This document shows positions 38,305 to 55,261 of a stretch of 64,000 nucleotides of DNA, in pieces; the stretch's first letter is position 1; every line of letters starts with the position of its first letter. The notes beneath the pieces were generated by a model. That model had not been told where the DNA came from and did not search any database. It saw only the letters and a list, made by a program, of their open reading frames with translations. The position numbers and the translations under genes were made by a program. Source of the stretch: OCS155 cluster bacterium AG-349-E07. Lineage in GTDB: Bacteria; Actinomycetota; Acidimicrobiia; Actinomarinales; Actinomarinaceae. The stretch covers positions 3,419 through 67,418 of the forward strand of contig QCCZ01000004.1 of the NCBI GenBank assembly GCA_003281085.1, read 5' to 3'.

Positions 38305-38307
38305 ATC

Positions 38308-39786
38308 TTAATTGCCAAAAAATATCGAGGATACTTCTCCGAGATAACTGAAAATCCCTGGAAAGATTCCAGAAACAAATGTTATTAGAACAGTGAATAC
38401 ACCAACCACTTTAAGAGGATTTTCAAATTGAAAAATTTTCTCCTCATTGATAGATTTAGGTTCATCCATCCATATAACTTTTGATATTCTCGCATAATAA
38501 ACTAAAGCAATTACAGCATTTATTGCACCAACAACTCCGAGAGCAATTCCAATTGAATTTGCAGAGCCTAATAAGCTTCTAAATACTACAAACTTTGCGA
38601 ACCAACCACCTAAAGGTGGTATTCCCGCAAGTGAGAAAAAGAAGATTGTTGTTAAGACTCCGGCTAGAGGTGATTTTCTCGCAGCCCCTCCCCACTCATA
38701 GAAGTTTGTTGATCCGGCATAATTACTAAAAAGATGCACGGACAAGAATGCTCCTAAATTCATAAATGCGTAAATAATCAGATAAGTAACACTTGCAAAA
38801 ATTCCATCTTGATAATCTCCGGTAATTCCAGATATTGCAATTGGGGCTAATATAAAACCAGCTTGCGAAATAGATGAATAAGCTAAAAGTCTAACTGGGT
38901 TATTTTGTTGCAATGCGACCAAATTACCAAGTGTCATGGTCAAGCCTGAGATAATCACAAGAATTATCCCCCAGCTTGATCCTGATCCTGCAAAAACTTT
39001 GGTTAATAAAATTATGAGAGCAACAAAACCAGTTGCTTTTGAACTTACAGATAGATATGCAGTTACAGGTAAGGGTGCTCCCTCGTAAGTGTCTGGTGCC
39101 CATGAATGAAAAGGAACTACGGAAATCTTAAATCCAATTCCAGATATTACTAATATTGCACTCAGTAATACTACTGGAGAATTAGCAAGTGATGCACCAA
39201 GCAAATATGAAGAGATCTCGGAAAAAACTAGTTTGCCTGAAAGACCATACAGAAGCGAAAATCCATACAATATAAGAGAAGCTGATAATACGCCTAAGAG
39301 AAAAAACTTAATTGCACCCTCATTTGATTTTCGATCACCTTTTTTCCATCCAGAAAGTAAAAACATCGGAGTAGAGGCAAGTTCAATACCAATAAATATA
39401 GTTAACAAATCCCTAGAAGAACTGACTATTAGTGCACCTAAAAGAGAACTTAATAATAAGTAGTAATATTCTCCTTGGTAATACTTATCGCTTTCAATGA
39501 AGTTAATTGAGAGAAGGAAGGTTAAATAAGTAATTAATATAAATAATCCTTTTAAAATAATTGAAAATTTGTCAATAACAAAGCTATTTTCAAAAGCATA
39601 TATAGGTGTCGTATAGCTTGCCCATTGAATTACTAAAGGTGCCAAAGAAAATAAAGTTCCAAGAAGTGCAAAAGCAGCTACATAATATTTTGATTTTCTT
39701 GGAAGAATCAAATCAAGAACTAGTGTTCCAACTATGGTAAAAACTACAATAAGTTCAGTAGATATTGCAAAATAATTTATAGAAAT
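38308..39786 (-). CDS. nuoN: NADH-quinone oxidoreductase subunit N (start probably non-canonical, upstream of the track's TTG 39711)
   Basis: Antiporter-like protein with FKISVVPFHSWAPDTYEGAP. The frame stays open upstream to 39828 and encodes a TM1-like KISINYFAISTELIVVFTIVGTLVLD with no ATG/GTG/TTG. ATT at 39786 follows GGGGG. Confidence 0.85.
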   Translation of the reverse strand: MSINYFAISTELIVVFTIVGTLVLDLILPRKSKYYVAAFALLGTLFSLAPLVIQWASYTTPIYAFENSFVIDKFSIILKGLFILITYLTFLLSINFIESDKYYQGEYYYLLLSSLLGALIVSSSRDLLTIFIGIELASTPMFLLSGWKKGDRKSNEGAIKFFLLGVLSASLILYGFSLLYGLSGKLVFSEISSYLLGASLANSPVVLLSAILVISGIGFKISVVPFHSWAPDTYEGAPLPVTAYLSVSSKATGFVALIILLTKVFAGSGSSWGIILVIISGLTMTLGNLVALQQNNPVRLLAYSSISQAGFILAPIAISGITGDYQDGIFASVTYLIIYAFMNLGAFLSVHLFSNYAGSTNFYEWGGAARKSPLAGVLTTIFFFSLAGIPPLGGWFAKFVVFRSLLGSANSIGIALGVVGAINAVIALVYYARISKVIWMDEPKSINEEKIFQFENPLKVVGVFTVLITFVSGIFPGIFSYLGEVSSIFFGN

Positions 39787-39788
39787 TT

Positions 39789-41357
39789 TTAACCCCCAAA
39801 GGCTTTGGATAGCATGGCTATAACTGCATCATTCGTTGCACCAAATATTAATTTAGGAAATACCCCAATTAATACTGTTAAAACAACTAGTGGAATCCAT
39901 GCTGAAAGCTCATAAACATCTGCATCATGAAGATCTTTGTCTAACCATTCATCTGATGGCTCTCCTAAATTAACTCTTTGTAACATCCAAAGTAAATAAC
40001 CTGCGGTTAAGACAGTTCCAATAGCACCGGCAACCATCGAAGTTCTAAATACAGTTATATTTAAACCATCTAATGGATTGTAAGCTCCTAATAAAGCCAT
40101 GAATTCTCCCCAAAAGCCAGCAAGGCCTGGGAGGCCTAATGAAGCCATCGCAGTAAACCCTAACAATGCACCCGTTTTTGGGAGTAACTTCATGTTTCCT
40201 CCTAATCTGCCCATATCTCTTGTGTGGTAAGTATGTGCCATAGAGCCTGACAAGAAGAAAAGTAATCCAGTGATTACCCCATGAGCAACCATTCCTATCA
40301 TTGCGGCATTAATTCCTATAGGCGTTAAAGATGCTATTCCTAACATAACAAAACCCATATGACCGACTGATGAAAAAGCGATTAGTCTCTTTAAATCTGT
40401 CTGTGCAAGGCAAGCCAAAGATCCATATATAATTCCAATTGCCGAAAGAATGGCTATTGCTGGAGCCCATGCTTTTGCCTGATCTGGAAGTATAGGTATT
40501 GCAATTCTGACAAAACCGTATGATCCAAGCTTCAATAAAATTGCTGCCAGTAATACTGAGCCAACAGTCGGTGCTGCTGTGTGAGCATCTGGAAGCCATG
40601 TGTGAAGAGGCCACATTGGGACTTTTACAGCAAAACCCAAAAATAATACTGCAAATACCAGCGTTGCAAATGTTCCTGTAAATGCGCCTGAGGTTCCCAA
40701 CTCAATTAACTCAGGAATACTAAATGTTTTATTTCCCCGATAATAAAGTCCCAAAAAACCAAGAAGCATAAAAGCAGATCCAAATAATGTGAAAACAAAA
40801 AACTTAATACTTGCATAAAGCCTCGTCTCTATTTGATTTTTAAATCCAGATACAGTCCTTACAGTTTTATCGCCCCATATTCCGATCATAAAATACATAG
40901 GTAGTAATACAATTTCAAAAAATACGAAGAAAAGAATCAAATCTAAAGCTACAAATGTTCCATTCATTCCTGTTTCAAGAACGAGTATTAAAGCTAAAAA
41001 ACCTTTAGGACTTTTTGGTTCAGGTAAATGCTCTATTGAATAAATTATTGCTAGTACGGTAATAAAAGTTGATAACACTAAAAGAGGGAGAGATATACCG
41101 TCTATGCCAATTTCATAATTTGCATTTATACTTTTTATCCATGATATTTTATTACCAAGTTGGAGTTTGTCGGCTGAGGAAAAATCAAATTGAAATAGTA
41201 AGACTGCACTTAAAACAAAAGTGATGAGTGAAGAAACTAATGCAAACCTTTTAATTAATTGTTCCTGAGCTTTTGGTATCAATGTAATTATAAATGCACT
41301 AATCAAAGGGAAAAAGACTACAACAGAAAGCCCCATACCATTTGTCAATAATTCCAC
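39789..41357 (-). CDS. nuoM: NADH-quinone oxidoreductase subunit M
   Basis: 522 aa, antiporter-like, about 14 TM, with the block VPMWPLHTWLPDAHTAAPT. Confidence 0.93.
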   Translation of the reverse strand: MELLTNGMGLSVVVFFPLISAFIITLIPKAQEQLIKRFALVSSLITFVLSAVLLFQFDFSSADKLQLGNKISWIKSINANYEIGIDGISLPLLVLSTFITVLAIIYSIEHLPEPKSPKGFLALILVLETGMNGTFVALDLILFFVFFEIVLLPMYFMIGIWGDKTVRTVSGFKNQIETRLYASIKFFVFTLFGSAFMLLGFLGLYYRGNKTFSIPELIELGTSGAFTGTFATLVFAVLFLGFAVKVPMWPLHTWLPDAHTAAPTVGSVLLAAILLKLGSYGFVRIAIPILPDQAKAWAPAIAILSAIGIIYGSLACLAQTDLKRLIAFSSVGHMGFVMLGIASLTPIGINAAMIGMVAHGVITGLLFFLSGSMAHTYHTRDMGRLGGNMKLLPKTGALLGFTAMASLGLPGLAGFWGEFMALLGAYNPLDGLNITVFRTSMVAGAIGTVLTAGYLLWMLQRVNLGEPSDEWLDKDLHDADVYELSAWIPLVVLTVLIGVFPKLIFGATNDAVIAMLSKAFGG

Positions 41358-41367
41358 TTTTCCCCTC

Positions 41368-43383
41368 CTATGTTATAAATAAAATTAATAAACTAATTGT
41401 CACTACGCCACCTAAAAATAGCATTAAATATTGTTGTGTCTTGCCCGTTTGTAACAATTTAACCTTACCGCCAAAATTATCAGTTCCGGTTGAAGACATG
41501 TTTAACAATTTATCAATTCCATTTTGATCAAAATTATTGTACACAACACTACCCATTAAGGAAGCAACTTGTCCAAAACCATTTACAAATCTATCAATTA
41601 CATTTGTGTTAAATTTATCTACGGCTTTAGAAATATTAATTTTTACTGGATCAATTACAAACTTGAAATAAAAGTGATCTAGATAATATTTGTTTTCAAG
41701 AACTGACCATATAGGTTGAATTTTAATTTTATTATCACCTGTTTCTGCGCTTCCTTGCAACTGATATAAGTAATATCCAAGTGCGATACCTAGCAAACCA
41801 GCTAATAAGCCACTCGATAGTGCGAATAAGTCAAAGCTTTCCGGATGGTATTCAACAATTTTATTCTTCCTTGTTGTAACCCAGTCTGTAAATCCTGTGT
41901 AAACCCCAGGAATATTTACCCAACCTGAGGCTATTGCAAAGACAGACAGTGTTAGAAGCGGAGTTGTCATGAGATTGTGTGATTCGTGAGGATGGCCATG
42001 GCCTCTATACTCTCCAAGGAATGTTAAAGAAACTGCTCGAGTCATATAAAATGCTGTTATAAATGCACCTAAAACTGCTATAAAAAAGAAAGTAGTTTCT
42101 CCCTCATGATTAAATGAAGCAAGAATTTCATCTTTAGAGAAAAAACCTGCAAATGGTGGGAGTCCAGCTAAAGCAATAGTTCCAATTATGAATGTAGCAA
42201 ATGTCTTTGGCATAACTTTTCTCAAACCACCCATTTCTAACATACTATTGCTATGAACAGAGTGGATTACAGAACCTGCTCCTAAAAACAATAAAGCTTT
42301 GAAAAATGCGTGTGTCCACAAATGAAATAATGCAGCGGTATATGCGCCTGAACCAATTGCAGCAACCATATATCCCAACTGACTTACTGTTGAGTATGCA
42401 AGTACCTTTTTTAGATCGTCTTGTACAACCGCAATTAATCCAGCAGCTAATAAAGTAATAACACCGAAAAGCATCACAACATCTAATGCATCTGGTGCCA
42501 TTGCTTTATAAAATGGAAACATTCTTGCTAATAAATAAACACCAGCTGTGACCATTGTTGCTGCATGCATTAGTGCAGAGACAGGTGTTGGACCAGCCAT
42601 AGCATCAGGCAACCAAACATGTAATGGAAATTGAGCACTCTTACCCATCGCACCAACAAATAATAAAATTGCAGCAACAAACGCAACGGTAGATAACTTT
42701 TCATAATCATGTGTTGACTGATAAAGAATTTTAGAAATTCTCAATGTTCCAGTGTTTAAAGCTAAAATGATTATTCCAATCATCAACCCTACATCAGCTA
42801 TTTTATTTGTAATAAAAGCTTTCATGGCTGCAGAGGAATTATCTTTCTTCTCCCAGTAGTGACCTATTAGTAAGTAAGAGCAGACTCCAACAAGTTCCCA
42901 TCCAATTAAAATTTGAATAAGAGTTGGAGAAGATACTAAAACTAACATGCTTCCGGCAAATAGAGTTAGCGATGTAAAGAAAAAAGTATATCTAATTTCA
43001 CCTTCCATATAATTTGTTGCATAAATGAAAACAAGTAACGCAACCGTTCCAACAACAAAATACATCATTATTGATAGTCCGTCGACTACCCAGCCAAACT
43101 CAATATCAAATACACCAATACTTCCAACGTTTATAAAAAATTCATTTACAACACCACTTGTGATGTGTAAGTACATTAGTGCGGCACTGTACAAAAATAT
43201 TATTCCAATAGTAGTTAGGGCTACTTCTGCTCCTTTCAAAGGTAAATATTTACCTGTAAAAGTTATGACTAATGCAGCCACAAAGGGTAACACTACTAAT
43301 AACCAAGCATACTCTGCTAAGATTCCCCCGTCGGTGTAAACTAATTCACCTTCAGCAAAAACAGTGGGTTTGAAATTTACCAT
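41368..43383 (-). CDS. nuoL: NADH-quinone oxidoreductase subunit L
   Basis: 671 aa with the block SAQFPLHVWLPDAMAGPTPVSALMHAATMV and a long C-terminal extension typical of NuoL. Confidence 0.93.
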   Translation of the reverse strand: MVNFKPTVFAEGELVYTDGGILAEYAWLLVVLPFVAALVITFTGKYLPLKGAEVALTTIGIIFLYSAALMYLHITSGVVNEFFINVGSIGVFDIEFGWVVDGLSIMMYFVVGTVALLVFIYATNYMEGEIRYTFFFTSLTLFAGSMLVLVSSPTLIQILIGWELVGVCSYLLIGHYWEKKDNSSAAMKAFITNKIADVGLMIGIIILALNTGTLRISKILYQSTHDYEKLSTVAFVAAILLFVGAMGKSAQFPLHVWLPDAMAGPTPVSALMHAATMVTAGVYLLARMFPFYKAMAPDALDVVMLFGVITLLAAGLIAVVQDDLKKVLAYSTVSQLGYMVAAIGSGAYTAALFHLWTHAFFKALLFLGAGSVIHSVHSNSMLEMGGLRKVMPKTFATFIIGTIALAGLPPFAGFFSKDEILASFNHEGETTFFFIAVLGAFITAFYMTRAVSLTFLGEYRGHGHPHESHNLMTTPLLTLSVFAIASGWVNIPGVYTGFTDWVTTRKNKIVEYHPESFDLFALSSGLLAGLLGIALGYYLYQLQGSAETGDNKIKIQPIWSVLENKYYLDHFYFKFVIDPVKINISKAVDKFNTNVIDRFVNGFGQVASLMGSVVYNNFDQNGIDKLLNMSSTGTDNFGGKVKLLQTGKTQQYLMLFLGGVVTISLLILFIT

Positions 43384-43682
43384 TTCATTAAATCAAATTC
43401 GTTTATGTTAGCTGTTTGTCTGTTTCTAAATAACATGAGTACAATCGCTAATCCTATGCCTACTTCAGCTGCTGCAATCGTAATAATAAAAATCGTAAAA
43501 ATTTGTCCCTGCATTAAAGTATCAGCGAGCATCGTATCAAACAAGATGAAATTAATATTTACAGAGTTAAGAATGAGTTCGATAGATAAGAGAACCATTA
43601 CAGCATTCCTTCTGACTAATATTCCATAAATGCCTAGCGAAAATAAAGCAGCTGCTACTACTAAAACGGGTTGGACAATCAA
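43377..43682 (-). CDS. nuoK: NADH-quinone oxidoreductase subunit K
   Basis: 101 aa, three TM, with the block SIELILNSVNINF..AAAEVGIGLAI. Confidence 0.92.
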   Translation of the reverse strand: MIVQPVLVVAAALFSLGIYGILVRRNAVMVLLSIELILNSVNINFILFDTMLADTLMQGQIFTIFIITIAAAEVGIGLAIVLMLFRNRQTANINEFDLMKW

Positions 43683-44197
43683 ACTTGATCCTCATCAATT
43701 AGTGCTTCATCTTTTCTAGCTAATGTTATTCCTCCAATTAGAGCAGCAAGTAAAACAAACGAAACTAATTCAAAGGGAAAAACAAATCTACTAAGCAGTA
43801 TTTCTCCTAGCAGTTCAGTAGAAGAGCCGGAAGTTACGACAACTTGGCCATCAAATCCATTTACTAATATGTATGAAAACAAGAAAAATATTGAGCCTGC
43901 GATTGCCGCCCCTAATTTTTTATTTTTATCGTTATCAAGCTCGGCATTTTTTCCTAATGGTGCCCGAGTAATCATAATTCCGAATAAAAAGAGAACTATA
44001 ACCGCGCCAATATATACAAGCACTAATACAAGAGCAACAAACTCCGTTGAAAGAAGTAAAAATAATACAGAAGTCAAGGCTAGTGTAAACACAAGGGATA
44101 TAGCAGCATGAATCACGTTTGAAGTTGTTACTACCCTAAGAGCGGTTGAAACCAATAAAAGAAGAACGAAGTAAGTTACAATCTCAAAAATTTCCAT
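43679..44197 (-). CDS. nuoJ: NADH-quinone oxidoreductase subunit J
   Basis: 172 aa, five TM. Its position between nuoI and nuoK and its YIGAVIVLFLFGIM block support the call. Confidence 0.88.
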   Translation of the reverse strand: MEIFEIVTYFVLLLLVSTALRVVTTSNVIHAAISLVFTLALTSVLFLLLSTEFVALVLVLVYIGAVIVLFLFGIMITRAPLGKNAELDNDKNKKLGAAIAGSIFFLFSYILVNGFDGQVVVTSGSSTELLGEILLSRFVFPFELVSFVLLAALIGGITLARKDEALIDEDQV

Positions 44198-44199
44198 TT

Positions 44200-44685
44200 T
44201 TAACTTTCGAGTCCCTCAGGATCTGGAACAGTTTGGAGCCAATCGTCTAGGCGTTCTTTGTCGTGCAACATGTCACCCATGTTGAATTCAGAATATTCAT
44301 ATTCTGGTGACCAAAACAAAGCATCGAATGGGCAAACTTCTACACAAATTCCACAATACATACATAGTGCATAGTCAATGTCAAACCTGTCCAAGACAGC
44401 TCTACTTCTTTGTCTACCTCCAGGTTTTGAAGGAGGTTGTAATTCTTTATGGCCTTCTATATAAATACACCAATCAGGGCACTGTCGTGCACACAACATA
44501 CAACTGGTGCATGCTTCTTGGTCTAAAGCAATAACCCCTCTTGCTCTTGGTGCGACTTTTTCTTTTTCAAATGGATAGTTGACATTTGGTTTTGAATGGA
44601 ATGGAGATAAAGTTTTAAGCATATTTACAATGACAATTTTTATTCCGATTAAAAATCCTGGTATTTTTGGCTTGAATGTCTTCAT
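44200..44685 (-). CDS. nuoI: NADH-quinone oxidoreductase subunit I
   Basis: 161 aa with two 4Fe-4S ferredoxin motifs, CTSCMLCARQCP and CMYCGICVEVCP. Confidence 0.93.
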   Translation of the reverse strand: MKTFKPKIPGFLIGIKIVIVNMLKTLSPFHSKPNVNYPFEKEKVAPRARGVIALDQEACTSCMLCARQCPDWCIYIEGHKELQPPSKPGGRQRSRAVLDRFDIDYALCMYCGICVEVCPFDALFWSPEYEYSEFNMGDMLHDKERLDDWLQTVPDPEGLES

Positions 44686-45656
44686 TAAAATCCAACTTTC
44701 ATAATTGCAGTTACAAGAATATTAACTAAAGATGCCGGAATAAGTATCTTCCAAGCAAGGTTTTGTAATTGATCTTCTCTAAATCTTGGTTGTGACCACC
44801 TTATTGCTACCAAGATAAAACCTAAAATAGCAGTTTTAGTTAAGAGAACAACAGGTCCATAAAAGTTTACCCATTCTGTTGGTAGTAGAGGCACATGATA
44901 ACCACCAAGAAATAGTGTTGAAGCAATAGCACATAAAATGAACATATTCATGTATTCAGAAATATAAAAAATAAGAAATCTAATCCCAGAATATTCTGTC
45001 ATAAATCCCATAGTTAATTCTGATTCACCAATTGGCATATCAAATGGCACTCTCATCATTTCAGCTGTTGCGGCAACCATAAAAATTAGAAAACCAACTA
45101 TCTGTCCACCAACAACAAAAGGAACTCCCCATTCAATTTGTTTCTCTACGATCCCAACTAATGACATAGTTTCAGCTTGAATAACAACCCCGACTACAGC
45201 AAGTATCAGTGGGAGTTCGTATGCTATGAGCTGTCCTGCCGCTCTTAGTCCTCCCATAAGGGAGTATTTATTTGCTGATGACCATCCAGCAGTTAATACA
45301 CCTATGGTTCCTAAAGAGCTAATTGCAAGTGCAAAGAAAACACCTAGTTCTAAATCTGCAACTACTAATGTAGGACTCATTGGAACTACAGCAAAAAGAG
45401 CAACACAAGAAACCATAACATACGCAGGTGCCCATTTAAATACTGGCCTGTCAACTTCAGTTGGAATTATGTCTTCTTTTTGAACAAATTTTAGTATTTC
45501 AGCTAACGGAAATATAAAACCTCTAAGTCCAACATGTAAAGGCCCTGGCCTTCTCTGCATCCAGGAGGCACCTTTAACATCCATAATTGTAAAAATGATT
45601 GCGCCATTTAATGCAGCAAGTGCAAGAAAGCCAACTTTTGCTAAGACGTCTGTCAT
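44685..45656 (-). CDS. nuoH: NADH-quinone oxidoreductase subunit H
   Basis: 323 aa, eight TM, with NuoH/ND1 blocks (MQRRPGP..G, EFMTEYSG variant GFMTEYSG). Its start overlaps the nuoD stop by 4 nt. Confidence 0.93.
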   Translation of the reverse strand: MTDVLAKVGFLALAALNGAIIFTIMDVKGASWMQRRPGPLHVGLRGFIFPLAEILKFVQKEDIIPTEVDRPVFKWAPAYVMVSCVALFAVVPMSPTLVVADLELGVFFALAISSLGTIGVLTAGWSSANKYSLMGGLRAAGQLIAYELPLILAVVGVVIQAETMSLVGIVEKQIEWGVPFVVGGQIVGFLIFMVAATAEMMRVPFDMPIGESELTMGFMTEYSGIRFLIFYISEYMNMFILCAIASTLFLGGYHVPLLPTEWVNFYGPVVLLTKTAILGFILVAIRWSQPRFREDQLQNLAWKILIPASLVNILVTAIMKVGF

Positions 45657-46861
45657 CTGTCAACATCTCCCAACACAAAATCTAAACTACCCATTATTGC
45701 AATTAAGTCTGGTAGTAATGCACCCTCAAGCATAATAGGTAAAATTGAAACATTGCTAAATGAAGCTGTTCGAACTTTAAGCCTGTATGGTCCAAGCCCT
45801 CCATCTGAAATTATGTAGTAACCCATTTCTCCCTTTGGATTTTCAGCTCTTACATAAGTACGACCTTTAGGGACTTTTATAACTTTAGGAACTTTTGCTT
45901 GTAGCGGTCCAGAAGGCATTGAATCAATTGCTTGCAAAACTATTTTTGCTGACTCAACCATTTCTTTTACCCTGACGTCCCATCGATCGTAACAATCTCC
46001 ATTCTCTCCAACAGGAATATCGTAATCAAATTGATCATATGGCAAATAATCTGTTTGTGTTCTGAGGTCAGACTTAACTCCTGAAGCTCTAAGTATTGGC
46101 CCTGAAACACCATAGGCTTCTGCTGTCTCAGCAGTTAGTACTCCAACATTTTTTGTTCTTTTTTTAAATACTTCATTTCCACCTATTAAGTTCTGAAATT
46201 GATCAGCAGCTTCTATTACTTTTTCCATTGCAACTTTGGTATCTCTATAAAATCCAGCAGGTAAATCTTGAATATTTTTTTTCGAAGTAGGACCTGCTCC
46301 AGCTGCTGGTTTTACTCCACCTATTCGATTAAAGTTTGGATGAAAGCGACCACCAGTAACTGACTCAATTAAATCTAAAACTCTTTCTCTATCTTCCATC
46401 GCATAAAAAATCGGAGTTAATGCACCAACTTCAAGAGCATAAGCTCCATTAAATACAAAATGTGAAGAAATTCTAGCCATTTCAGTAAGAATTAATCTGA
46501 TATGTTTAGCTCTTTCAGGCACTTCAATTTCCATTAATCTTTCAGCACCAGCAATAAAAGGAATTTCATTAGAAAACCCTGCAACCCAATCAATACGGTT
46601 TACAAGTGTGGTTATCTGGGGATATGTTCTAACCTCTGCTAATTTTTCATATCCACGATGCATGTATCCAAGTACGGGTTTGACATCATGAACTTTTTCT
46701 CCATCTACTTTAGCGACCAATCTAAGTACTCCATGGGTTGATGGATGTTGAGGTCCAATGTTCAGCGTCATGTCTTCAGTTTCAATTTCTACTGATACAG
46801 ATGCCTCAGAAAAGTTATTCATATTTTGAGGATCTAGTGCATTAATCATCAGTTGTTTCAT
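45653..46861 (-). CDS. nuoD: NADH-quinone oxidoreductase subunit D
   Basis: 402 aa with NIGPQHPSTHGVLRLV, GYMHRGYEKL and the C-terminal SLDFVLGDVDR. Confidence 0.95.
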   Translation of the reverse strand: MKQLMINALDPQNMNNFSEASVSVEIETEDMTLNIGPQHPSTHGVLRLVAKVDGEKVHDVKPVLGYMHRGYEKLAEVRTYPQITTLVNRIDWVAGFSNEIPFIAGAERLMEIEVPERAKHIRLILTEMARISSHFVFNGAYALEVGALTPIFYAMEDRERVLDLIESVTGGRFHPNFNRIGGVKPAAGAGPTSKKNIQDLPAGFYRDTKVAMEKVIEAADQFQNLIGGNEVFKKRTKNVGVLTAETAEAYGVSGPILRASGVKSDLRTQTDYLPYDQFDYDIPVGENGDCYDRWDVRVKEMVESAKIVLQAIDSMPSGPLQAKVPKVIKVPKGRTYVRAENPKGEMGYYIISDGGLGPYRLKVRTASFSNVSILPIMLEGALLPDLIAIMGSLDFVLGDVDR

Positions 46862-47387
46862 CGCTTTCTGATTCTTCAGGCATTCCTTCTACATCAACAT
46901 CTCCCGGCCAAGGCTTTACTTCCCTACTAATTAGTTCAAAAGATTTAAGCATAGGATTGCCTTCGTATCCGTCAGGAAGATATAATTTTTCAAGATTTGG
47001 ATGATTTTCAAAATTTATTCCAAACATTTCGTGTGCTTCTCTCTCATGCCAGTTTGCTCCTGCATACACTTCTATAAGAGAGTCAATCTTTGGATCTGAT
47101 TTACCAATACTTGTCGAAACAACAATTAAATTAGTATTTGCTAAGTCCGATAAGCATGTAATTACTTCGAAACAGGGTGAAACGCTTTCTTTAGGAGCTT
47201 CACCAACAGAAACATCATTGTCCCAATCTACTGCTGAAAGCCAGGAGAAAAATTTCAAATTAAATTCATCTCTAAGTTTTTTATGTGCTTCAATCCACTC
47301 TGTTGAGTCAACTTTAATATTTATTGTTTCAAACTCTAATACAGCGTCTTTAAAGCTTTCTTTTATATTGTTATAAAATTCTTCCAT
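46842..47387 (-). CDS. nuoC: NADH-quinone oxidoreductase subunit C
   Basis: 181 aa with the 30-kDa subunit motif ANWHEREAHEMFGINFENHP and an acidic C-terminal tail. Confidence 0.92.
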   Translation of the reverse strand: MEEFYNNIKESFKDAVLEFETINIKVDSTEWIEAHKKLRDEFNLKFFSWLSAVDWDNDVSVGEAPKESVSPCFEVITCLSDLANTNLIVVSTSIGKSDPKIDSLIEVYAGANWHEREAHEMFGINFENHPNLEKLYLPDGYEGNPMLKSFELISREVKPWPGDVDVEGMPEESESDETTDD

Positions 47388-47388
47388 C

Positions 47389-47886
47389 TTAAATTGGCTC
47401 AGTTTGAACTTCTGTCCATTTTTCTTTCATATCTTCTCCACGAATTTTTTTCTGAAGAAGAATTATGCCCTCCTGAAGTGCTTCTGGTCTTGGCGGACAA
47501 CCTGGAACGTAGACATCTACAGGAATTAGTTGATCGACGCCCTTGGTGACTGAGTAAGAATCCCAATATGGACCGCCACTATTAGAGCAAGAGCCCATTG
47601 AAATAACATACTTTGGTTCTGGCATTTGATCATAGAGCCTTTTGACAGAAGGAGCCATTTTGTCTGTTACTGTTCCAGCTACAATCATGAAATCAGCCTG
47701 TCGCGGAGATGCGGGAAGTGGAATTACTCCTAATCTCATAAAATCGTGCCTAGGTCCACTTACAGCCATAACTTCAATGGCGCAACATGCTAATCCGAAT
47801 TGAAAATACCAAAGTGAATATGATCTAGCCCAGTTAAAAACTGATGATATAGGTTTTGGAAGACCAAATTTGTCTATGACTCCCAC
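47389..47886 (-). CDS. nuoB: NADH-quinone oxidoreductase subunit B
   Basis: 165 aa with cluster-N2 ligand contexts [16 protein letters not shown] and VPGCPPRPE. Confidence 0.95.
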
Positions 47887-48242
47887 TTAAGCACATCCTT
47901 TCTTATTGCATATATAAGACCAATTAAAAGAATGAATATAAAAACAAACATTTCAATTAATCCAAAATAACCCAGCTTTTCTAAATTAATAGCCCATGGA
48001 AATATGAAGACTGCTTCAACATCAAAAATTACGAAAAGTAAACCAAATATATAGTATCTAACATATGTTTGACTCCATCCTGTACCTACAGGGTCTACAC
48101 CACATTCATAAGTTTGCAGTTTTTCAGGATAAGGCTTGTTTGGTCTGAGCACAGAGGCCACCCCGAGTAATAATACAACAAGAAATAAGCCGAATCCCAG
48201 CACTGCTCCTATGGTCACGTAGTCTTGAAAATAAGAAATCAT
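47874..48242 (-). CDS. nuoA: NADH-quinone oxidoreductase subunit A
   Basis: 122 aa, three TM, with the YECGVDP motif. An in-frame stop lies two codons upstream of the ATG. Confidence 0.92.
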
Positions 48243-49430: not shown

Positions 49431-50219
49431 GTGAAAAATCTTAAACTTTTATTTTTTCTTTTAACTTTTTCTTTTTGTTCCCAATCAAGTGAGATGACAA
49501 TGGGAATGCCTGAACCGTATTTTGGAGGAACTGAGGACATAGCTTTTTCTGAAACTTCTTTATCACGAGACGGGTCTTTTTCACAAGGCGACTATATTAT
49601 TAAAACTGCTTATGCAAGCACAGACGTAAGTTCCTCTAATTTTGAAAATACAATCGATGAAGTAGAAGATTTAGTTAAGAACTACAACGGCAATATTTCT
49701 AATACTTATCTTTCAACTAATTATCAAGGTCTTAAAAGTTATAACCTAACAATGAACATTCCAGCAGAAGAGTTTGAAAGTTTCCTATTGAAAGTAGAAG
49801 AAATTTCCAAATTTACAAATATCAATTTGAACGCAAATGATGTAACTAAATATGTGCTTGATATTGATTCAAGATTGAAATCATTAAAAGATGAGAAGAA
49901 AGCGCTTGAAGAAATAAAAGAAGAGGCAGTATCAACATCTGACAAACTTCAAGTACAATCTCAGCTTCGGTACATCAATCAAGATATACAAGTGCTTGAA
50001 GGACAAAAAGAATATTATGAAAATTCAGTATCGTACTCTACTTTGACTCTAGATATCAGAGAAGGTTCAGGAGTTTCATTATTTTCTTGGAATTATTATG
50101 TTCAAAGAGCTTTAAATTGGATTGAATCAATAATTGGTTTTGGTGTGTCATTTGGCATAATTGCTGTTCCATTGTTGCTGTTATTACTAGGGTTTAAAAA
50201 ATTTAGGTCTAAAAGCTAA
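49431..50219 (+). CDS. Lipoprotein with coiled-coil and C-terminal TM anchor (DUF4349-like)
   Basis: 262 aa with a GTG start and a signal peptide ending in the lipobox-like FSFC. It has a central coiled coil (LKSLKDEKKALEEIKEE) and a hydrophobic C-terminus. Confidence 0.55.
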   Translation: MKNLKLLFFLLTFSFCSQSSEMTMGMPEPYFGGTEDIAFSETSLSRDGSFSQGDYIIKTAYASTDVSSSNFENTIDEVEDLVKNYNGNISNTYLSTNYQGLKSYNLTMNIPAEEFESFLLKVEEISKFTNINLNANDVTKYVLDIDSRLKSLKDEKKALEEIKEEAVSTSDKLQVQSQLRYINQDIQVLEGQKEYYENSVSYSTLTLDIREGSGVSLFSWNYYVQRALNWIESIIGFGVSFGIIAVPLLLLLLGFKKFRSKS

Positions 50220-50290
50220 TGGCACTGTCTTACATTGGATTATTTTTAATCATTATTCTGCTTATAGTTTTTGGAAAAAAAATTAAATAA
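50219..50290 (+). CDS. Candidate 23-codon hydrophobic micro-ORF
   Basis: MALSYIGLFLIIILLIVFGKKIK. Its ATG overlaps the upstream stop as TAATG. It is a single TM-like helix with a Lys-rich end and was too short for the ORF track. Confidence 0.3.
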   Translation: MALSYIGLFLIIILLIVFGKKIK

Positions 50291-50294
50291 GAGC

Positions 50295-51098
50295 TTAATT
50301 TGGTTGATACGTTCCAAAAAATACTTGCCAGGCAAGACAAGTCTTTGCTAACAAACTAAGCCAAATGTAAGCTCTTTCTCCATATAAATAATCTTTCCAT
50401 TTACCTACTTGCTTGTATTGCAATATCATATTTATTGAAAAAGTATTAAAGAATAAAAATATACTTACAAAAATCCATACTACAAATTGTGGAACTCCCT
50501 GAGGGTTAGAGTCAGTTGCAACACCATCACCTATTAGATTTATAAATATAAAAATCCACGGGGCAACGCCAACTAAGCAGCCCATTATATAGCTTGTCCA
50601 GTCAACTTTTTCAGTATATTGATTATTAACTTCCATCATCCAACCAAACCAACACATTGCAGCATTCATGAAAAATATTCCAGCTAATGCCCATACGTCA
50701 TAAATTCCTACTAATAGAGCAATAAGAACAATCATCACTGATGCACTAATTGAGTATTCAATCCAACGCACCTTATTTATTCCTTTTGATAGGTCTTCTT
50801 TATATTTGTTGTAAAAAGGTCCAGAAATAAGGTAGTGAGCAACTGCTGAAGCAAGTAAGAAGGTTGCTACTGCTGGACCGAAGTTTGTAATCTCTCTCCA
50901 TACTTCAAGTTCAGGAACCAATGCAAAGCTTGAGGGATCTTCAGGAGAACCTACTCCTACTAATTGGGTTAATGTTACAGGTACAACAAAATCTGAGTTT
51001 ACGACAGTACCCAACCAAAAAAGTAAGCCACCCTGCAAAAGGTGTACAGTGCCCATGATGATATTGAATCTTTTAAGTTTCTTAATCTTAAGTTCCAT
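50295..51098 (-). CDS. Heliorhodopsin-family retinal-binding seven-helix membrane protein
   Basis: 267 aa, seven TM. The blocks HLLQ (His19), AHYLIS (His88), RWIEYSISASVMIVLIA (Glu114) and GERAYIWLSLLAKTCLAWQVF (Lys252) match my recollection of heliorhodopsin 48C12. A GAGGGA SD lies 4 nt before the ATG. Confidence 0.88.
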   Translation of the reverse strand: MELKIKKLKRFNIIMGTVHLLQGGLLFWLGTVVNSDFVVPVTLTQLVGVGSPEDPSSFALVPELEVWREITNFGPAVATFLLASAVAHYLISGPFYNKYKEDLSKGINKVRWIEYSISASVMIVLIALLVGIYDVWALAGIFFMNAAMCWFGWMMEVNNQYTEKVDWTSYIMGCLVGVAPWIFIFINLIGDGVATDSNPQGVPQFVVWIFVSIFLFFNTFSINMILQYKQVGKWKDYLYGERAYIWLSLLAKTCLAWQVFFGTYQPN

Positions 51099-51126
51099 GT
51101 TTCCCTCAATTAGAAATAATTAATAT

Positions 51127-51140
51127 AAGTTTAGTTTTTT
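51127..51140 (-). promoter_or_regulatory. 14-nt motif AAGTTTAGTTTTTT upstream of the heliorhodopsin gene (identical to 48270-48283)
   Basis: It is an exact 14/14 match to the nuoA-upstream copy. It lies 28 nt before the ATG here and 27 nt before the nuoA ATG, in the same orientation relative to the gene. Confidence 0.35.
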
Positions 51141-51152
51141 ATTTAGAATTAA

Positions 51153-51350
51153 ATGATGGATAAACAACTAATTTTTTCAGAAATTGAATCAATGATTTTT
51201 GACATTGAAACCGCAATTAAATCTCTTGCAAATTCAAGAGAGTATATCGCAGAAGATAATTACTCAAGAGCATTTACTCACTTGGCAGAAATAGAAATTG
51301 AATTGCAGACTTTGGCTGGAAGAGTGGCTTATATTAAATCAAGCCTTTGA
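51153..51350 (+). CDS. Small helical hypothetical protein (65 aa)
   Basis: The ORF is divergent from the heliorhodopsin gene across a 54-nt spacer. It has amphipathic, coiled-coil-like composition, and its 3' end overlaps the convergent ABC ATPase gene by 12 nt. I recognise no family. Confidence 0.4.
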   Translation: MMDKQLIFSEIESMIFDIETAIKSLANSREYIAEDNYSRAFTHLAEIEIELQTLAGRVAYIKSSL

Positions 51351-52364
51351 AGGAAAAGTAGTTACCTCAGAAATTTCAATATTAATTCTGTCACCAGCTT
51401 CATAAATAGTGTTTGGTAGTGATCTAGCTCTAAAAATTTCGCCCTTGCTATTTTGAAAGGATATGACTTGATCGTGTCCATAAAATGTACATTCCTTGAC
51501 TACATAATTTCCTTCTGTGTCTAAATTAAGTTCAATACACTCTGGCCTTATTGAAACATCTAAGGCACCGTCATAAGCTGAAACAAAAGTACCGAGAGAA
51601 GTCTCTACCATTCCATTCACAGAAAATCCTTTAAGAATATTAGGGTCACCAACTGAATTAGCGACTGTCTGACTTACTGGATTGAGATAAATCTCTTGTG
51701 GAGTCGCACTTTGAATAACACTTCCATTTTCTAAAACACTTACAACATCACATACAGAAAGTGCTTCCTCCTGATCGTGTGTGACTATTATTGCTGTTGT
51801 TTCTGTTTCTCTAAGAAGCAACATAACTTCATCTCTTAAATCTCTAGCCATGTGCGCATCTAAGCTTGTAAAAGGTTCATCTAAAAGAATAACTTCGGGA
51901 TTCGGTGCTATTGCTCTTGCAAGAGCGACTCTCTGCTGTTGGCCGCCTGAAAGTTCTTGTGGCAACTTGTTTCTATAACTACTTAAATTACACATATCAA
52001 TAACTTCTTCCAATCTTCCACTTTTAATTTGATGTTTTGATAAGCCAAATGCAATATTATCTTTTACATTTAAATGAGGAAATAATGCATAATCTTGAAA
52101 CACCATTCCAACATTTCTTTGTTCAGGTGGCAAATAAGTTTCATCACTAGAAATAACTTCATTCCTCATTTCAATTATTCCACTATCAGGTTTTTCAAAT
52201 CCAGCGATTAATCTAAGTGCTGTTGTTTTTCCTGAACCAGATACACCTAAAATTCCTACTATGGCGCCATTCCAAACATCAAGATTAAAATCAACAAGAA
52301 CTTTTTCAGATCCATAAGACTTAGCTACGGAACGAGCCCTAATTATTAAGCTATCATATACCAT
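51339..52364 (-). CDS. ABC importer ATP-binding protein (FbpC/PotA-like, with C-terminal regulatory/TOBE-type domain)
   Basis: 341 aa with Walker A GVSGSGKTT, signature LSGGQQQRVALARA and Walker B ILLDEP. Confidence 0.88.
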   Translation of the reverse strand: MVYDSLIIRARSVAKSYGSEKVLVDFNLDVWNGAIVGILGVSGSGKTTALRLIAGFEKPDSGIIEMRNEVISSDETYLPPEQRNVGMVFQDYALFPHLNVKDNIAFGLSKHQIKSGRLEEVIDMCNLSSYRNKLPQELSGGQQQRVALARAIAPNPEVILLDEPFTSLDAHMARDLRDEVMLLLRETETTAIIVTHDQEEALSVCDVVSVLENGSVIQSATPQEIYLNPVSQTVANSVGDPNILKGFSVNGMVETSLGTFVSAYDGALDVSIRPECIELNLDTEGNYVVKECTFYGHDQVISFQNSKGEIFRARSLPNTIYEAGDRINIEISEVTTFPSKA

Positions 52365-53920
52365 TAGTTATCTAAATTCCTTGTACTAAGTATATATGTA
52401 GGGAAAGCACTTATTGCCAAAAGAATAAATCCAGAAAAAGCTGCTTGTGTAAACAATGCTTCTGATGCATAAGACCATATGTCTACGGCCATTGTACTGA
52501 AGCCAGTTGGTCTTAATAATAATGTCTGGGGCAACTCTTTCATTGTTGAAAGAAACACTAATGCGGCACCAGCAAAAAGCCCCTTATAAATCAAGGGAAA
52601 TGTAACTTTAAAAAATGTATCTAATCTTGATAATCCAAGCCCTGCACTTGCTTCAATATAAGATACTTTTACTTGTTCCATTGATGCTTGTCCCCCTCCA
52701 ACAGCCTGTGGCAAAAATACAATCAAGTATGAGATTATTAGAGTTATAAAAGTTTGATAAATTGTAGGAAATATTTTTATCGTTATAAATAACATTGAAA
52801 TCCCAACTGCAATATGCGGTAGCCCATAAAGAGTAAGTGTGACTTTCTCAAATAAATCTCCAAATTTTGATTTGTATTGGGAAATCATTACAACTATTGG
52901 GGTAGCTATGATCATCGCAAAAAAAGATGTAACTGTTGCTGCGGTTAAAGAACCAGCAATGCCTGCTAACGATCCTGTAATTGGATTTCCATTAGATATA
53001 CCTCGAATTAACCAGTATGAGAGTACACAAACAGGTAAAAGTAAACTGAAAAAAATTAAAGTACCAAAAAATAGTAGAACTAAATATTTATTTCTTTTTG
53101 AGAGTTCTAACCTAACCGGCTCTCTAGGTGTGCCGGATACTTTTGCTGACTTACTCATCTCACTTCCTCTTTGAGCAAAACTTATGATCAGGGCAAGAAC
53201 AATTAAAATCGTTGAGTAAAAAATGACTGGATCACCATTTATATTTATTACATAATAAGAGTAGATTGCTTTTGTCATAGTTCCATACTTCATCAACGAA
53301 ACAGCACCAAAATCAGAAATAACATACAAACCTACTAAGAGTGATGAATATATCATAGGTTTTTTTAACCTTGGAATGACTACACTTGTATACATTTTTA
53401 TTCGTTTTACACCTAAAGATCTCGCAGCATCTTCTACTGTTGAATCTAAATTTCTTAAGGCACTACTGCAAATTAATTGAACATAAGGATATGTAAATAA
53501 TGTTAAAACAATCCAGCTTCCAACAAACCCTTCTATTCCAATTATTTCAGACAAACCATATCTAGAAAATATTTCAACAAATAAACCCTTAGGAGAAAAA
53601 ACAGATACATACGTTAAAGCTCCAATATAAGACGGAATTACTAGCGGTAAAATTGTTAAACTAAATAAAATTTTTGATCCAGGGAATTTATATCTAACAG
53701 TTAGGACAGAAATTGTTAAGCCAAGTAAAAGGCTTGTAAAAACAACTGCAAAAAAAAGCAATACGGTATTGAATAAAAGAGTCGATACATCCCATGAATT
53801 TAAAAAACGAGATAAATTTTTTGATAAATCTGCAAAACGCCAAAATAAATAAAAAAGTGGCATTAAAAATAAAGATAGGATTATAACGTTAGTTGTTAAT
53901 AAAAGTTTAGGTGTTTTCAC
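52364..53920 (-). CDS. Two-domain ABC importer permease (FbpB-like, Fe3+ type)
   Basis: 518 aa with two tandem 6-TM MetI-like halves, as in Fe(III)/thiamine-type permeases. Confidence 0.8.
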   Translation of the reverse strand: MKTPKLLLTTNVIILSLFLMPLFYLFWRFADLSKNLSRFLNSWDVSTLLFNTVLLFFAVVFTSLLLGLTISVLTVRYKFPGSKILFSLTILPLVIPSYIGALTYVSVFSPKGLFVEIFSRYGLSEIIGIEGFVGSWIVLTLFTYPYVQLICSSALRNLDSTVEDAARSLGVKRIKMYTSVVIPRLKKPMIYSSLLVGLYVISDFGAVSLMKYGTMTKAIYSYYVININGDPVIFYSTILIVLALIISFAQRGSEMSKSAKVSGTPREPVRLELSKRNKYLVLLFFGTLIFFSLLLPVCVLSYWLIRGISNGNPITGSLAGIAGSLTAATVTSFFAMIIATPIVVMISQYKSKFGDLFEKVTLTLYGLPHIAVGISMLFITIKIFPTIYQTFITLIISYLIVFLPQAVGGGQASMEQVKVSYIEASAGLGLSRLDTFFKVTFPLIYKGLFAGAALVFLSTMKELPQTLLLRPTGFSTMAVDIWSYASEALFTQAAFSGFILLAISAFPTYILSTRNLDN

Positions 53921-53961
53921 TTATTTAAGAATATATTGAAAAATTAGATAATAAAAGAAAA

Positions 53962-53991
53962 AATTCTGGTCAGATTTCTCTGACCAGAATT
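53962..53991 (-). terminator. Hairpin with flanking T-run between the binding-protein and permease genes (partial terminator or mRNA stabiliser)
   Basis: AATTCTGGTCAGA-TTTC-TCTGACCAGAATT forms a 13-bp perfect stem. It is followed by a T-run on the minus strand and lies 30 nt after the binding-protein stop. Confidence 0.6.
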
Positions 53992-54020
53992 TTTGGCTTA
54001 TGTTGATGCTGACCGAAGGA

Positions 54021-55139
54021 TTAATATCCTGCCTGAGCAATTAGTTCAACAGCTTTTTCTTGCCATAACGCTAATGCAGACCAGTTTAAGTTTGAAGGAG
54101 AGTTCAAGCTGTTTATATCTGGCAACAATTCGTTTGGCTCAATTCCTGCTACAAGAGGGAACTCATATACAGTGTTTGTAAATGTTTCTTGAGCTGATTT
54201 TGAATGTAAAAATTCAATGAACGCCATAGCTGCTGGTTTATTCTGGCTTGAGGACAAAATTCCAACACCTGCAGGCATAACCATTGCTCCACAACCACCA
54301 TCTAGGTACACATTCTTAATTGGAGCAGAAGAATCTTCTGCTAAAACTCTTAATGTGTAGTAATGGTTAATCATCCCAATATCAAGTTCTCCTGCAGCTG
54401 CAGCAGCAACTTGTGGAGAGTTCTTTGGATATTCTCCGTATCCAAGACCATTAATTGTTGTTAACCAATCTAGAACTTTTTCTTCACCATCTGATTCGAT
54501 CATACATGCAACCATTGCAATGAAAGATCCATTAGTTGGTGCTAAACCTAATCTATTTCTAAACTTTTCATCAGCAAGACCATAAATATCACTTGGCAAC
54601 TCTGCATCAGTGACGTCTCTTGTATCAACAACTAGAGACCTTGATCTTCCAGAAGTACCAACCCAGTATCCGTTTTTGTCTACCGCCCATGCTGGAACAT
54701 TGTCTAGAACGCTATCCGGAAGTCGGTCAAATAATCCTTCTTTGGCAATTACACCAAGGCTTACAGGATCTTGTGAAAAGAACACGTCTGCAGGACTAAT
54801 GGCACCTTCAAGAACAACTGTTCCTGCTAATGCCGGGCTTTTTGCATATCTTACTTCAACTTCAACACCTGAAGTTGCAGCAAATTCTGCAATGATATCT
54901 GCGACTAAGCTTTCTTTTCTACCACTATAAATTACTAGTGTTCCACCTACTTCGGCTTCTGGTTCAGAAAGTGCTGCTTCAACAGCAGCATCTATAGCTT
55001 CTTGTGATACTTCACCTGCTGGTCCTTGCGCACCTGCTGGTCCTTGCTCTCCTGCTGGTCCTTGCTCTCCTGCTGTTGGAGTACAAGCAGTTAAAACCAT
55101 CATTAAAGCAATCAAAGTAACTGTTAATTTTTTATTCAT
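54021..55139 (-). CDS. Fe(III)-type ABC substrate-binding lipoprotein (FbpA-like)
   Basis: I place the start at MNKKLTVTLIALMMVLTAC (ATG 55139; lipobox LTAC). After a GEQGPA-repeat linker comes GTLVIYSGRKESL...SPADVFFSQDP, typical of iron-binding SBPs. Confidence 0.78.
   Translation of the reverse strand: MNKKLTVTLIALMMVLTACTPTAGEQGPAGEQGPAGAQGPAGEVSQEAIDAAVEAALSEPEAEVGGTLVIYSGRKESLVADIIAEFAATSGVEVEVRYAKSPALAGTVVLEGAISPADVFFSQDPVSLGVIAKEGLFDRLPDSVLDNVPAWAVDKNGYWVGTSGRSRSLVVDTRDVTDAELPSDIYGLADEKFRNRLGLAPTNGSFIAMVACMIESDGEEKVLDWLTTINGLGYGEYPKNSPQVAAAAAGELDIGMINHYYTLRVLAEDSSAPIKNVYLDGGCGAMVMPAGVGILSSSQNKPAAMAFIEFLHSKSAQETFTNTVYEFPLVAGIEPNELLPDINSLNSPSNLNWSALALWQEKAVELIAQAGY
55014..55077. repeat. 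About 3.5 tandem copies of an 18-nt unit encoding GPAGEQ
   Basis: The plus strand reads acctgctggtccttgcgc / acctgctggtccttgctc / tcctgctggtccttgctc / tcctgctg.. It lies inside the SBP linker and is GC-rich relative to its surroundings. Confidence 0.85.
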
Positions 55140-55261
55140 TTTAACCTTTATTCGCTTAACTTTGTTAATAGTACTTAACAAATATAGTTAATGGTAATTT
55201 ATTTTTAGTTTTTTTTAAATTATAATTTATCCTTAGAAAGAGAATATTTTAATATAATAAA

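Follow-up and report, generated by a model that had tools for sequence, protein, structure and literature searches.

A canonical heliorhodopsin and its gene neighbourhood in a Candidatus Actinomarina genome

Heliorhodopsins (HeRs) are widespread, and a physiological role has been settled for few members only. Candidatus Actinomarina is among the most abundant photoheterotrophs of the surface ocean, and a HeR gene under very strong constraint is present in every genome of the group, whose cells are nevertheless unable to make retinal. A role for HeR in this organism would matter for marine microbial physiology. Here we analyse a stretch of 64,000 nucleotides (hereafter the window; ~34% GC) from the OCS155 cluster bacterium AG-349-E07, contig QCCZ01000004.1, which carries a HeR gene on its minus strand at 50295-51098. 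A reading of the letters alone (the original prediction) had described this gene as a HeR-family photoreceptor with all key residues intact and no visible partner. Our data make it near certain that the gene encodes an intact, canonical HeR of Candidatus Actinomarina, predicted to be N-in, dimeric and retinal-binding. The window adds no new kind of object: because Kovalev et al. (2020), Lopez-Perez et al. (2020) and Bulzu et al. (2021) describe the locus, the HeR gene is already known together with its key residues and its surroundings, and the finding is a correct re-discovery in one more genome of the clade.

The heliorhodopsin gene and its product

The features of the gene and its 5' flank are listed here, with residues of HeR 48C12, from a freshwater actinobacterial fosmid, as reference.

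50295..51098, minus strand: HeR coding sequence, 267 aa plus stop (profile, PDB and fold matches)
50343..50345, minus strand: codon of Lys252, retinal Schiff-base lysine (48C12 K241; HMMER alignment; invariant in 53/53 orthologues)
50652..50654, minus strand: codon of Cys149, at the position of 48C12 I142 (order-specific substitution)
50757..50759, minus strand: codon of Glu114, Schiff-base counterion in helix 3 (48C12 E107; HMMER and orthologue alignments)
50835..50837, minus strand: codon of His88, Schiff-base cavity (48C12 H80; HMMER and orthologue alignments)
51042..51044, minus strand: codon of His19, Schiff-base cavity (48C12 H23; HMMER and orthologue alignments)
51099..51152, no strand: divergent intergenic spacer of 54 nt with the HeR ribosome-binding site and an AT-rich -10-like element; presumed HeR promoter site

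The open reading frame (ORF) runs from an ATG to a TAA stop over 267 codons, exactly where it had been placed, and is preceded by a GAGGG ribosome-binding site at 51103-51107, 4 nt 5' of the ATG. The peptides quoted in the original prediction (HLLQ, AHYLIS, RWIEYSISASVMIVLIA and GERAYIWLSLLAKTCLAWQVFFG) are all located in the translation, and the coordinates given there for the Lys252 codon agree with ours. Its family call is borne out by two curated models that match far above their cut-offs. Pfam PF18761 aligns over model positions 1-241 of 242 with E=8e-88 and 294.3 bits (cut-off 26.7), and the NCBIfam HeR equivalog NF038020 scores 306.4 bits (cut-off 100). HeRs were the only matches in a sequence search of the PDB, the best being TaHeR (6is6, E=1e-65); the 48C12 entries (6su3, 6uh3 and 9ljj) match at ~1e-55 (6su3, E=1.7e-55). 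The sequence blocks of 48C12 cited in the original prediction agree with its PDB sequence.

An AlphaFold2 model built on an alignment of 33 sequences has a mean pLDDT of 84.6 and shows seven long helices, with a beta-hairpin in the AB loop (strands 46-51 and 54-62) where the pLDDT is lower (57-78). When the model was compared with the PDB by Foldseek, the first ten hits were all HeR chains (E 1e-15 to 1e-12, TM 0.75-0.86); type-1 rhodopsins trail in the list with E>1e-3 and TM ~0.5-0.6, and structures of SRII and HtrII reach a TM of ~0.57, the level of generic seven-helix similarity. The N-terminus together with loops BC, DE and FG carries 15 Lys and Arg residues (five in BC and four in FG), whereas loops AB, CD and EF together with the C-terminus carry 1. 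This tally fits the cytoplasmic N-terminus that the original prediction had proposed as a check, and an inverted topology is predicted.

Scanning one genome per prokaryotic species recovered 53 orthologous loci, every one from single amplified genomes (SAGs) or metagenome-assembled genomes of Candidatus Actinomarina, Actinomarinales or OCS155. Their HeRs are 84-98% identical without indels, the closest species representatives sharing 98% protein identity; beyond this set identity falls to ~50%, in Thermoplasmatales, Bathyarchaeia, Patescibacteria and other Actinomycetota. With the exception of the nuo core (see below), HeR is the most constrained gene of its immediate neighbourhood. Identities across the loci range over 63-98% for afuC, 55-96% for afuB and 46-98% for afuA, the genes of the adjacent iron importer, and go down to 43-44% for genes on the opposite strand. 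The codon-position entropy of HeR (0.26/0.10/1.04) is lower than that of afuC at positions 1 and 2 and is comparable to that of nuoA. Across the order, purifying selection on the gene is very strong.

Residue correspondences were read from a HMMER alignment of the protein to 48C12. As key positions we took the HeR interior set of Kovalev et al. (2020; PMC7049168), with 39 positions mapped; that account groups them into Schiff-base stabilisers, the polar Schiff-base cavity, the hydrophobic barrier and the Glu149 region, and further into surface polar clusters and the retinal pocket. Residues at 34 of the 39 are identical to those of 48C12, including the whole Schiff-base and cavity sets, and all mapped key residues are invariant across the 53 orthologues. 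A failure of Lys252 or Glu114 to align with the Schiff-base lysine and the counterion had been named beforehand as grounds for rejecting the family call; both align, and Lys252, in helix 7, is invariant also in a wider alignment (A1) that contains 28 outgroup HeRs. The DTD/DTE/NTQ-type motif of type-1 rhodopsins is absent from helix 3, as had been noted from the letters. Instead, the helix carries a single Glu counterion, and a Ser at the S237 position (S248 here) replaces the second carboxylate of type-1 rhodopsins. Two more Ser positions, with roles as given by Kovalev et al. (2020), are kept as well (S111 as S118, S76 as S84). All 12 residues of the polar cavity and cytoplasmic cluster are identical (H23, H80, N101, Y108, N16, E230, R104, Y92, E149, Q216, Y226 and W105 in 48C12 numbering), the conserved Schiff-base cavity consisting of His19, His88, Asn108, Tyr115, Asn12, Glu241, Arg111 and Tyr99 in window numbering.

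The five departures from 48C12 are Q213 to M224, I142 to C149, S112 to A119, S242 to T253 and Y179 to N187. Met is a frequent variant at the Q213 position according to Kovalev et al. (2020; PMC7049168), and Y179 is a residue of the dimer interface. I142 lines the beta-ionone end of the retinal pocket in the same account; the residue at this position is Cys in 53/53 Actinomarinales orthologues vs Ile in 28/28 outgroup HeRs of alignment A1, and Cys149 may affect colour (spectral) tuning. A further cysteine, Cys254, lies two residues past Lys252 in 35 of the 53 orthologues. Together, the two cysteine substitutions may matter for colour tuning or redox sensitivity. Relative to the same 28 outgroup proteins, the clade also has an AB region longer by ~10 residues, an EF loop longer by 3-5 residues, and Trp246.

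The surrounding genes and their arrangement

The neighbouring features are as follows.

37288..48242, minus strand: 11-subunit nuo operon (A, B, C, D, H, I, J, K, L, M, N) and NDUFAF7-like methyltransferase gene, 3' of HeR on the same strand
49431-50219, strand opposite to HeR: DUF4349 gene (Pfam)
50219..50290, plus strand: 23-aa single-pass membrane micro-ORF (MALSYIGLFLIIILLIVFGKKIK), convergent with HeR and ending 4 nt from the HeR stop
51153..51350, plus strand: 64/65-aa orphan gene, divergent from HeR; its 3' end overlaps the afuC stop by 12 nt
51339..55139, minus strand: afuA-afuB-afuC Fe(III) ATP-binding cassette (ABC) importer, 5' of HeR on the same strand (FbpA-family structure matches)
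55262-56281, strand opposite to HeR: hemH (ferrochelatase)
56561-57250, strand opposite to HeR: dtxR
62528-64000, minus strand: nuoN, last gene of the second nuo cluster, at the right edge of the window

The neighbours named by the original prediction, a DUF4349 gene, two tiny ORFs, an FbpA-type Fe(III) ABC importer and nuoA about 2 kb away, are thus confirmed. The importer consists of a substrate-binding lipoprotein (AfuA; best E=2.7e-63 against FbpA-family structures), a fused double permease (AfuB) and an ATPase (AfuC). The nuo operon starts with nuoA at 48242, is without nuoE, F and G, and is followed by genes for the NDUFAF7-like methyltransferase, HtpX, a rhodanese and a pfkB kinase; the second nuo cluster is full-length according to the published descriptions of the locus. 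Elsewhere, the first 33 kb (1-33 kb) hold genes for ribosomal proteins, EF-Tu/EF-G, rpoA, secY and nusG, and the window also contains four tRNAs and genes for a ferrochelatase, a DtxR-family repressor and thymidine kinase.

Among the window ORFs scanned with Pfam and NCBIfam there is no type-1 rhodopsin, transducer, kinase or carotenoid/retinal gene, and the ORFs of 33-64 kb contain no family of the kind expected for a methyl-accepting chemotaxis protein-like Htr or an ASRT transducer beside HeR. The earlier statement that the window lacks transducer, kinase and retinal-synthesis genes therefore holds for the ORFs scanned, yet the absence of retinal genes is a trait of the whole order rather than a peculiarity of the window: Lopez-Perez et al. 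(2020; PMC7771536) describe Actinomarinales as being without retinal biosynthesis.

We also asked whether HeR is transcribed together with its same-strand neighbours. The order afuA-afuB-afuC, HeR, nuoA, nuoB on one strand is kept wherever contigs reach in the 53 loci. In all of them the conserved opposite-strand 64-aa gene takes up the 240 nt from the afuC stop to the HeR start, and HeR is separated from nuoA by ~2 kb with three opposite-strand genes, namely the 23-aa ORF, DUF4349 and a phosphodiesterase-like gene. Cho et al. (2024) score an operon when helR and its partner run in the same direction from one promoter with a spacing of about -20 to +30 bp; none of the 53 loci has this arrangement, and HeR classes as 'helR alone'. 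Across the loci the gene is preceded by a conserved ribosome-binding site and a divergent spacer of 35-55 nt. HeR therefore looks monocistronic, a stand-alone unit that has a ribosome-binding site of its own and a short, divergent promoter region, and it is unlikely that afuABC, HeR and nuo form a strict operon. Near HeR, the terminator-like hairpins sit inside coding sequence, an Rfam scan of 47-58 kb (E<=1) gave no match, and the short palindromes present in the afuA-hemH and orf64-HeR spacers are not informative.

The two flanking micro-genes both appear to be real. The 64-aa orphan is present in 53/53 loci with constant length, 44-98% identity and a conserved motif (KSLANSRE...LQ..AG), and its codon-position entropy of 0.76/0.42/1.13 is of the coding type. 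A mere terminator hairpin of afuC was ruled out as an explanation of this ORF, whose length is constant and whose entropy peaks at position 3, with a minimum at position 2. AlphaFold predicts an antiparallel two-helix hairpin (pLDDT 94.7), for which Foldseek returned generic two-helix matches only (E>0.8); a Pfam scan of the protein gave no match. Among 1.84 billion sequences it matches 13 representative clusters only, nearly all of ~64 aa, and a hidden Markov model of the family found nothing below E=0.07 at 26 distant and 6 outgroup HeR loci. The family thus seems to be essentially confined to Actinomarinales. The 23-aa micro-ORF is likewise found in 53/53 loci, with an ATG or GTG start, and encodes a peptide whose hydrophobic core lies between a conserved MxLSYIG N-terminus and a basic tail of the form G(K/R)(K/R)I(K/R). 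The TAATG overlap between the ORF start and the DUF4349 stop suggests that its translation is coupled to the DUF4349 operon.

Several of the remaining neighbours are variable. hemH is missing in ~40% of the loci that reach that far, dtxR in five loci (L022-L025 and L052), and DUF4349 in L006, L011, L026-L041 and L050. This agrees with Bulzu et al. (2021), who report that gene gains and losses are confined to the strand opposite HeR. A search of the whole window for the DtxR/IdeR operator TWAGGTWAGSCTWACCTWA with up to 3 mismatches (<=3) gave no match. On the importer side, the afuA ORF spans 54021-55181 (minus strand) and has a lipoprotein signal (MNKKLTVTLIALMMVLTAC), its real start probably being at 55139; a collagen-like linker (GEQGPAGEQGPAGAQGPAGE) follows the signal, and the FbpA-like domain starts near residue 80. 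Between afuA and afuB, a gap of 100 nt contains a perfect 16-bp inverted repeat with a 4-nt loop and A/T runs on either side (53959-53994), which may be an intra-operon attenuator or an mRNA-stabilising hairpin favouring excess binding protein.

Probable light sensing and candidate partners

The original prediction had read the gene as a light sensor or light-dependent regulator with an unknown partner, and this is still the best reading. The profile, residue, fold and topology tests all turned out in favour of the family call. We consider it probable that HeR is a non-pumping light sensor acting through a partner protein, the usual mode of action of the family. By analogy with family members, the protein would bind all-trans retinal, form a dimer and pump no ions. 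The retinal would have to be scavenged, since the order is without retinal biosynthesis, or it might be shared with the cell's type-1 pump. Light would isomerise the retinal, the Schiff-base proton would pass into the conserved water cavity, and a long-lived intermediate would persist as signalling state for ~1 second. This state could alter the cytoplasmic surface formed by the BC and FG loops with their 9 Lys/Arg residues, and modulate the activity of a bound partner through these positively charged loops, as shown for other HeRs. A partner encoded elsewhere in the genome, e.g. glutamine synthetase or the photolyase that adjoins the type-1 rhodopsin (PMC7771536), is ranked ahead of the neighbours.

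Some points weigh against this reading. The literature searched gave no pigment, photocycle or pumping data for any Actinomarinales HeR, and 'non-pumping' is an extrapolation because a viral HeR does transport protons. The clade has traits of its own that may have functional effects (Cys149, Met224 for Gln213, and the longer AB region and EF loop). As to the stand-alone unit, the monocistronic assignment is drawn entirely from gene arrangement, and transcripts may read through from afuC across the antisense micro-gene. A promoter consensus scan gave 26 sites vs 29 expected by chance, which is uninformative because the window is AT-rich.

The statement that HeR has no visible partner stands insofar as no partner is established, but candidates exist among the neighbours: afuABC and nuo, which are unsupported beyond adjacency. 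Neighbour conservation within the order carries little weight, because Actinomarinales genomes are highly syntenic overall (PMC7771536). We therefore compared contexts outside the order, at 26 distant HeR loci and at the three nearest-outgroup HeRs. afuABC adjoins HeR in 0/26 distant loci and in none of the three nearest outgroups; generic ABC ATPase similarities occur at distant loci, one directly adjoining HeR (L075) and all others at distances above 2 kb. This bears on the proposal that HeR is a light-dependent modulator of AfuABC, tuning iron uptake by contacting AfuB or AfuC in the membrane or at its cytoplasmic face, possibly so as to curb Fenton damage or to keep uptake in step with the need for haem, in view of the ferrochelatase and DtxR-like repressor nearby. 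The proposal draws on the constant same-strand position of afuA-afuB-afuC directly 5' of HeR wherever contigs reach, on the single transcription unit with HeR proposed by Bulzu et al. (2021), on the clustering of the iron-related hemH and dtxR at the locus, and on the demonstration that another HeR binds and up-regulates the ABC transporter OmrDE. That precedent, however, is a type-IV-like heterodimeric exporter and not a binding-protein-dependent importer. In addition, 240 nt with a conserved opposite-strand gene lie in between, outside the -20 to +30 bp spacing of an operon; afuABC diverge much faster than HeR (46-98% vs 84-98%); many species do without hemH and dtxR; the window has no match to a DtxR/IdeR box; and genome-wide synteny makes the conserved gene order weak evidence. 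We regard this proposal as unlikely. That HeR regulates, or is otherwise tied in function to, the complex-I-like enzyme of 11 subunits (without NuoEFG), so that light would switch electron input into respiration, is very unlikely. Within the order HeR always lies between two nuo clusters, the 11-subunit operon with its NDUFAF7-like, htpX and rhodanese genes is downstream on the same strand, and a distant Coriobacteriia locus (L078) has nuoAB ~6 kb downstream of HeR. Yet this is the only one of the 26 distant loci with nuo nearby and the nearest outgroups have none, the ~2 kb with three opposite-strand genes separates HeR from nuoA, order-wide synteny confounds the association, and an experimental precedent for an interaction of HeR with complex I was not found in the literature.

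The three nearest-outgroup HeRs adjoin either a photolyase gene (in an Acidimicrobiia bacterium) or unrelated genes. In the former (HeR P0070, loci L081-L083), a convergent DNA photolyase gene follows HeR; upstream are same-strand sortase and DUF4397 genes and a divergent pair of extracytoplasmic function (ECF) sigma factor and anti-sigma factor (RskA) genes. The adjacency of P0070 and photolyase fits the published link between HeRs and photolyase. For the micro-genes, no homologue was found beside HeR in the other lineages searched. That HeR works as a light switch with lineage-specific flanking partners, the 23-aa peptide and/or the 64-aa hairpin protein, seems to us distinctly unlikely, and that the cytoplasmic hairpin and the membrane peptide are accessory subunits or transducers of HeR is highly unlikely. 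In favour of such roles, both genes are present in 53/53 species with fixed length and coding-type codon-position patterns, the hairpin gene shares a divergent control region of 35-55 nt with HeR, the hairpin family is essentially confined to the order (13 clusters/1.84 billion) like the clade-specific loop extensions of HeR, and known sensory rhodopsins signal through transducers that are either membrane helices or small soluble proteins (Kovalev et al. 2020; PMC7049168). Adjacency, however, is expected for any gene given near-perfect synteny and ~3-bp spacers. Furthermore, the 23-aa ORF belongs to a DUF4349/phosphodiesterase-like operon, since it is coupled by the TAATG overlap to DUF4349 or follows the phosphodiesterase-like gene, and the Foldseek matches of the hairpin are generic. 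Least probable of all, and hardly to be expected, is that HeR is itself a transporter with a proton path driven or gated by light, as in the viral V2HeR3, or an enzyme acting on a triangular anion, such as carbonate or nitrate, lodged in the Schiff-base cavity. Proton transport by the viral protein is shown, acetate or another triangular anion occupies the cavity of 48C12 and has led to the hypothesis of an enzymatic role (PMC7049168, PMC7771536), and the cavity residues are all conserved in the window protein. Against this, the extracellular half of the family is described as hydrophobic and without a conduction path (PMC7049168), the corresponding columns are largely hydrophobic here too, the protein aligns with the non-pumping 48C12/TaHeR group at ~50% identity, no pumping has been seen in the HeRs of bacteria and archaea tested to date, and catalysis has never been shown for a HeR.

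Comparison with known systems

The closest comparison is with the published Actinomarinales HeRs, which form cluster C11 of Bulzu et al. (2021). Their members in our set are the orthologues described above (84-98% identical), and they share the gene order, with the second nuo cluster on the other side of HeR. Lopez-Perez et al. (2020; PMC7771536, Fig. 5) place HeR between two nuo copies, one without EFG, and report residues matching 48C12; Kovalev et al. (2020; PMC7049168, SI Fig. S22) drew the same neighbourhood from SAG AG-333-G23, which is locus L050 among our 53. The window annotation reproduces every gene of the unit proposed by Bulzu et al. (2021), afuA-afuB-afuC-HeR-11-subunit nuo-NDUFAF7-htpX-pspE-adenosine kinase, and the setting of HeR beside afuABC, ferrochelatase and an iron repressor is likewise part of the three accounts. 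A 2026 preprint, 'Actinomarina, resolved', lists the gene as heliorhodopsin with function unknown. There is no substantive difference between the window and this clade; those portions of the published accounts on which this comparison draws make no mention of the two flanking micro-ORFs or of the invariant Cys149. The additions made here are modest: micro-genes on the opposite strand bracket HeR in 53/53 species, afuABC and nuo adjoin no outgroup HeR examined, the gene arrangement argues against co-transcription with either, and Cys149, a pocket residue, is invariant in the clade.

That HeRs have no generally agreed role, as stated in the original prediction, is broadly still true, with the qualification that experiments link other members to glutamine synthetase, photolyase and an ABC exporter. 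These HeRs bind or modulate glutamine synthetase, photolyase or the exporter OmrDE, and provide precedents for partner regulation (PMC11109279, PMC12873467); the viral V2HeR3 transports protons. The OcHeR-OmrDE pair (Cho et al. 2024) resembles our locus in that the HeR gene lies by ABC-transporter genes and the cytoplasmic loops are positively charged. It differs in that OmrDE is a heterodimeric multidrug exporter co-transcribed with helR, whereas the neighbour in the window is a binding-protein-dependent Fe(III) importer with an opposite-strand gene in between. Compared with 48C12 (6su3, 6uh3), the window protein aligns over its full length with a TM of 0.75-0.84. Identical residues include the Schiff-base lysine with its Glu counterion, the triad of Ser, the two His and the cytoplasmic Arg/Glu/Tyr cluster, although overall identity is only 49% and both the AB and the EF loop of the window protein are longer. 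Among solved structures, TaHeR from a Thermoplasmatales archaeon (6is6) matches best, with 51% identity, TMq 0.81 and TMt 0.86; it is archaeal, and its AB and EF loops are shorter than those of the Actinomarina protein.

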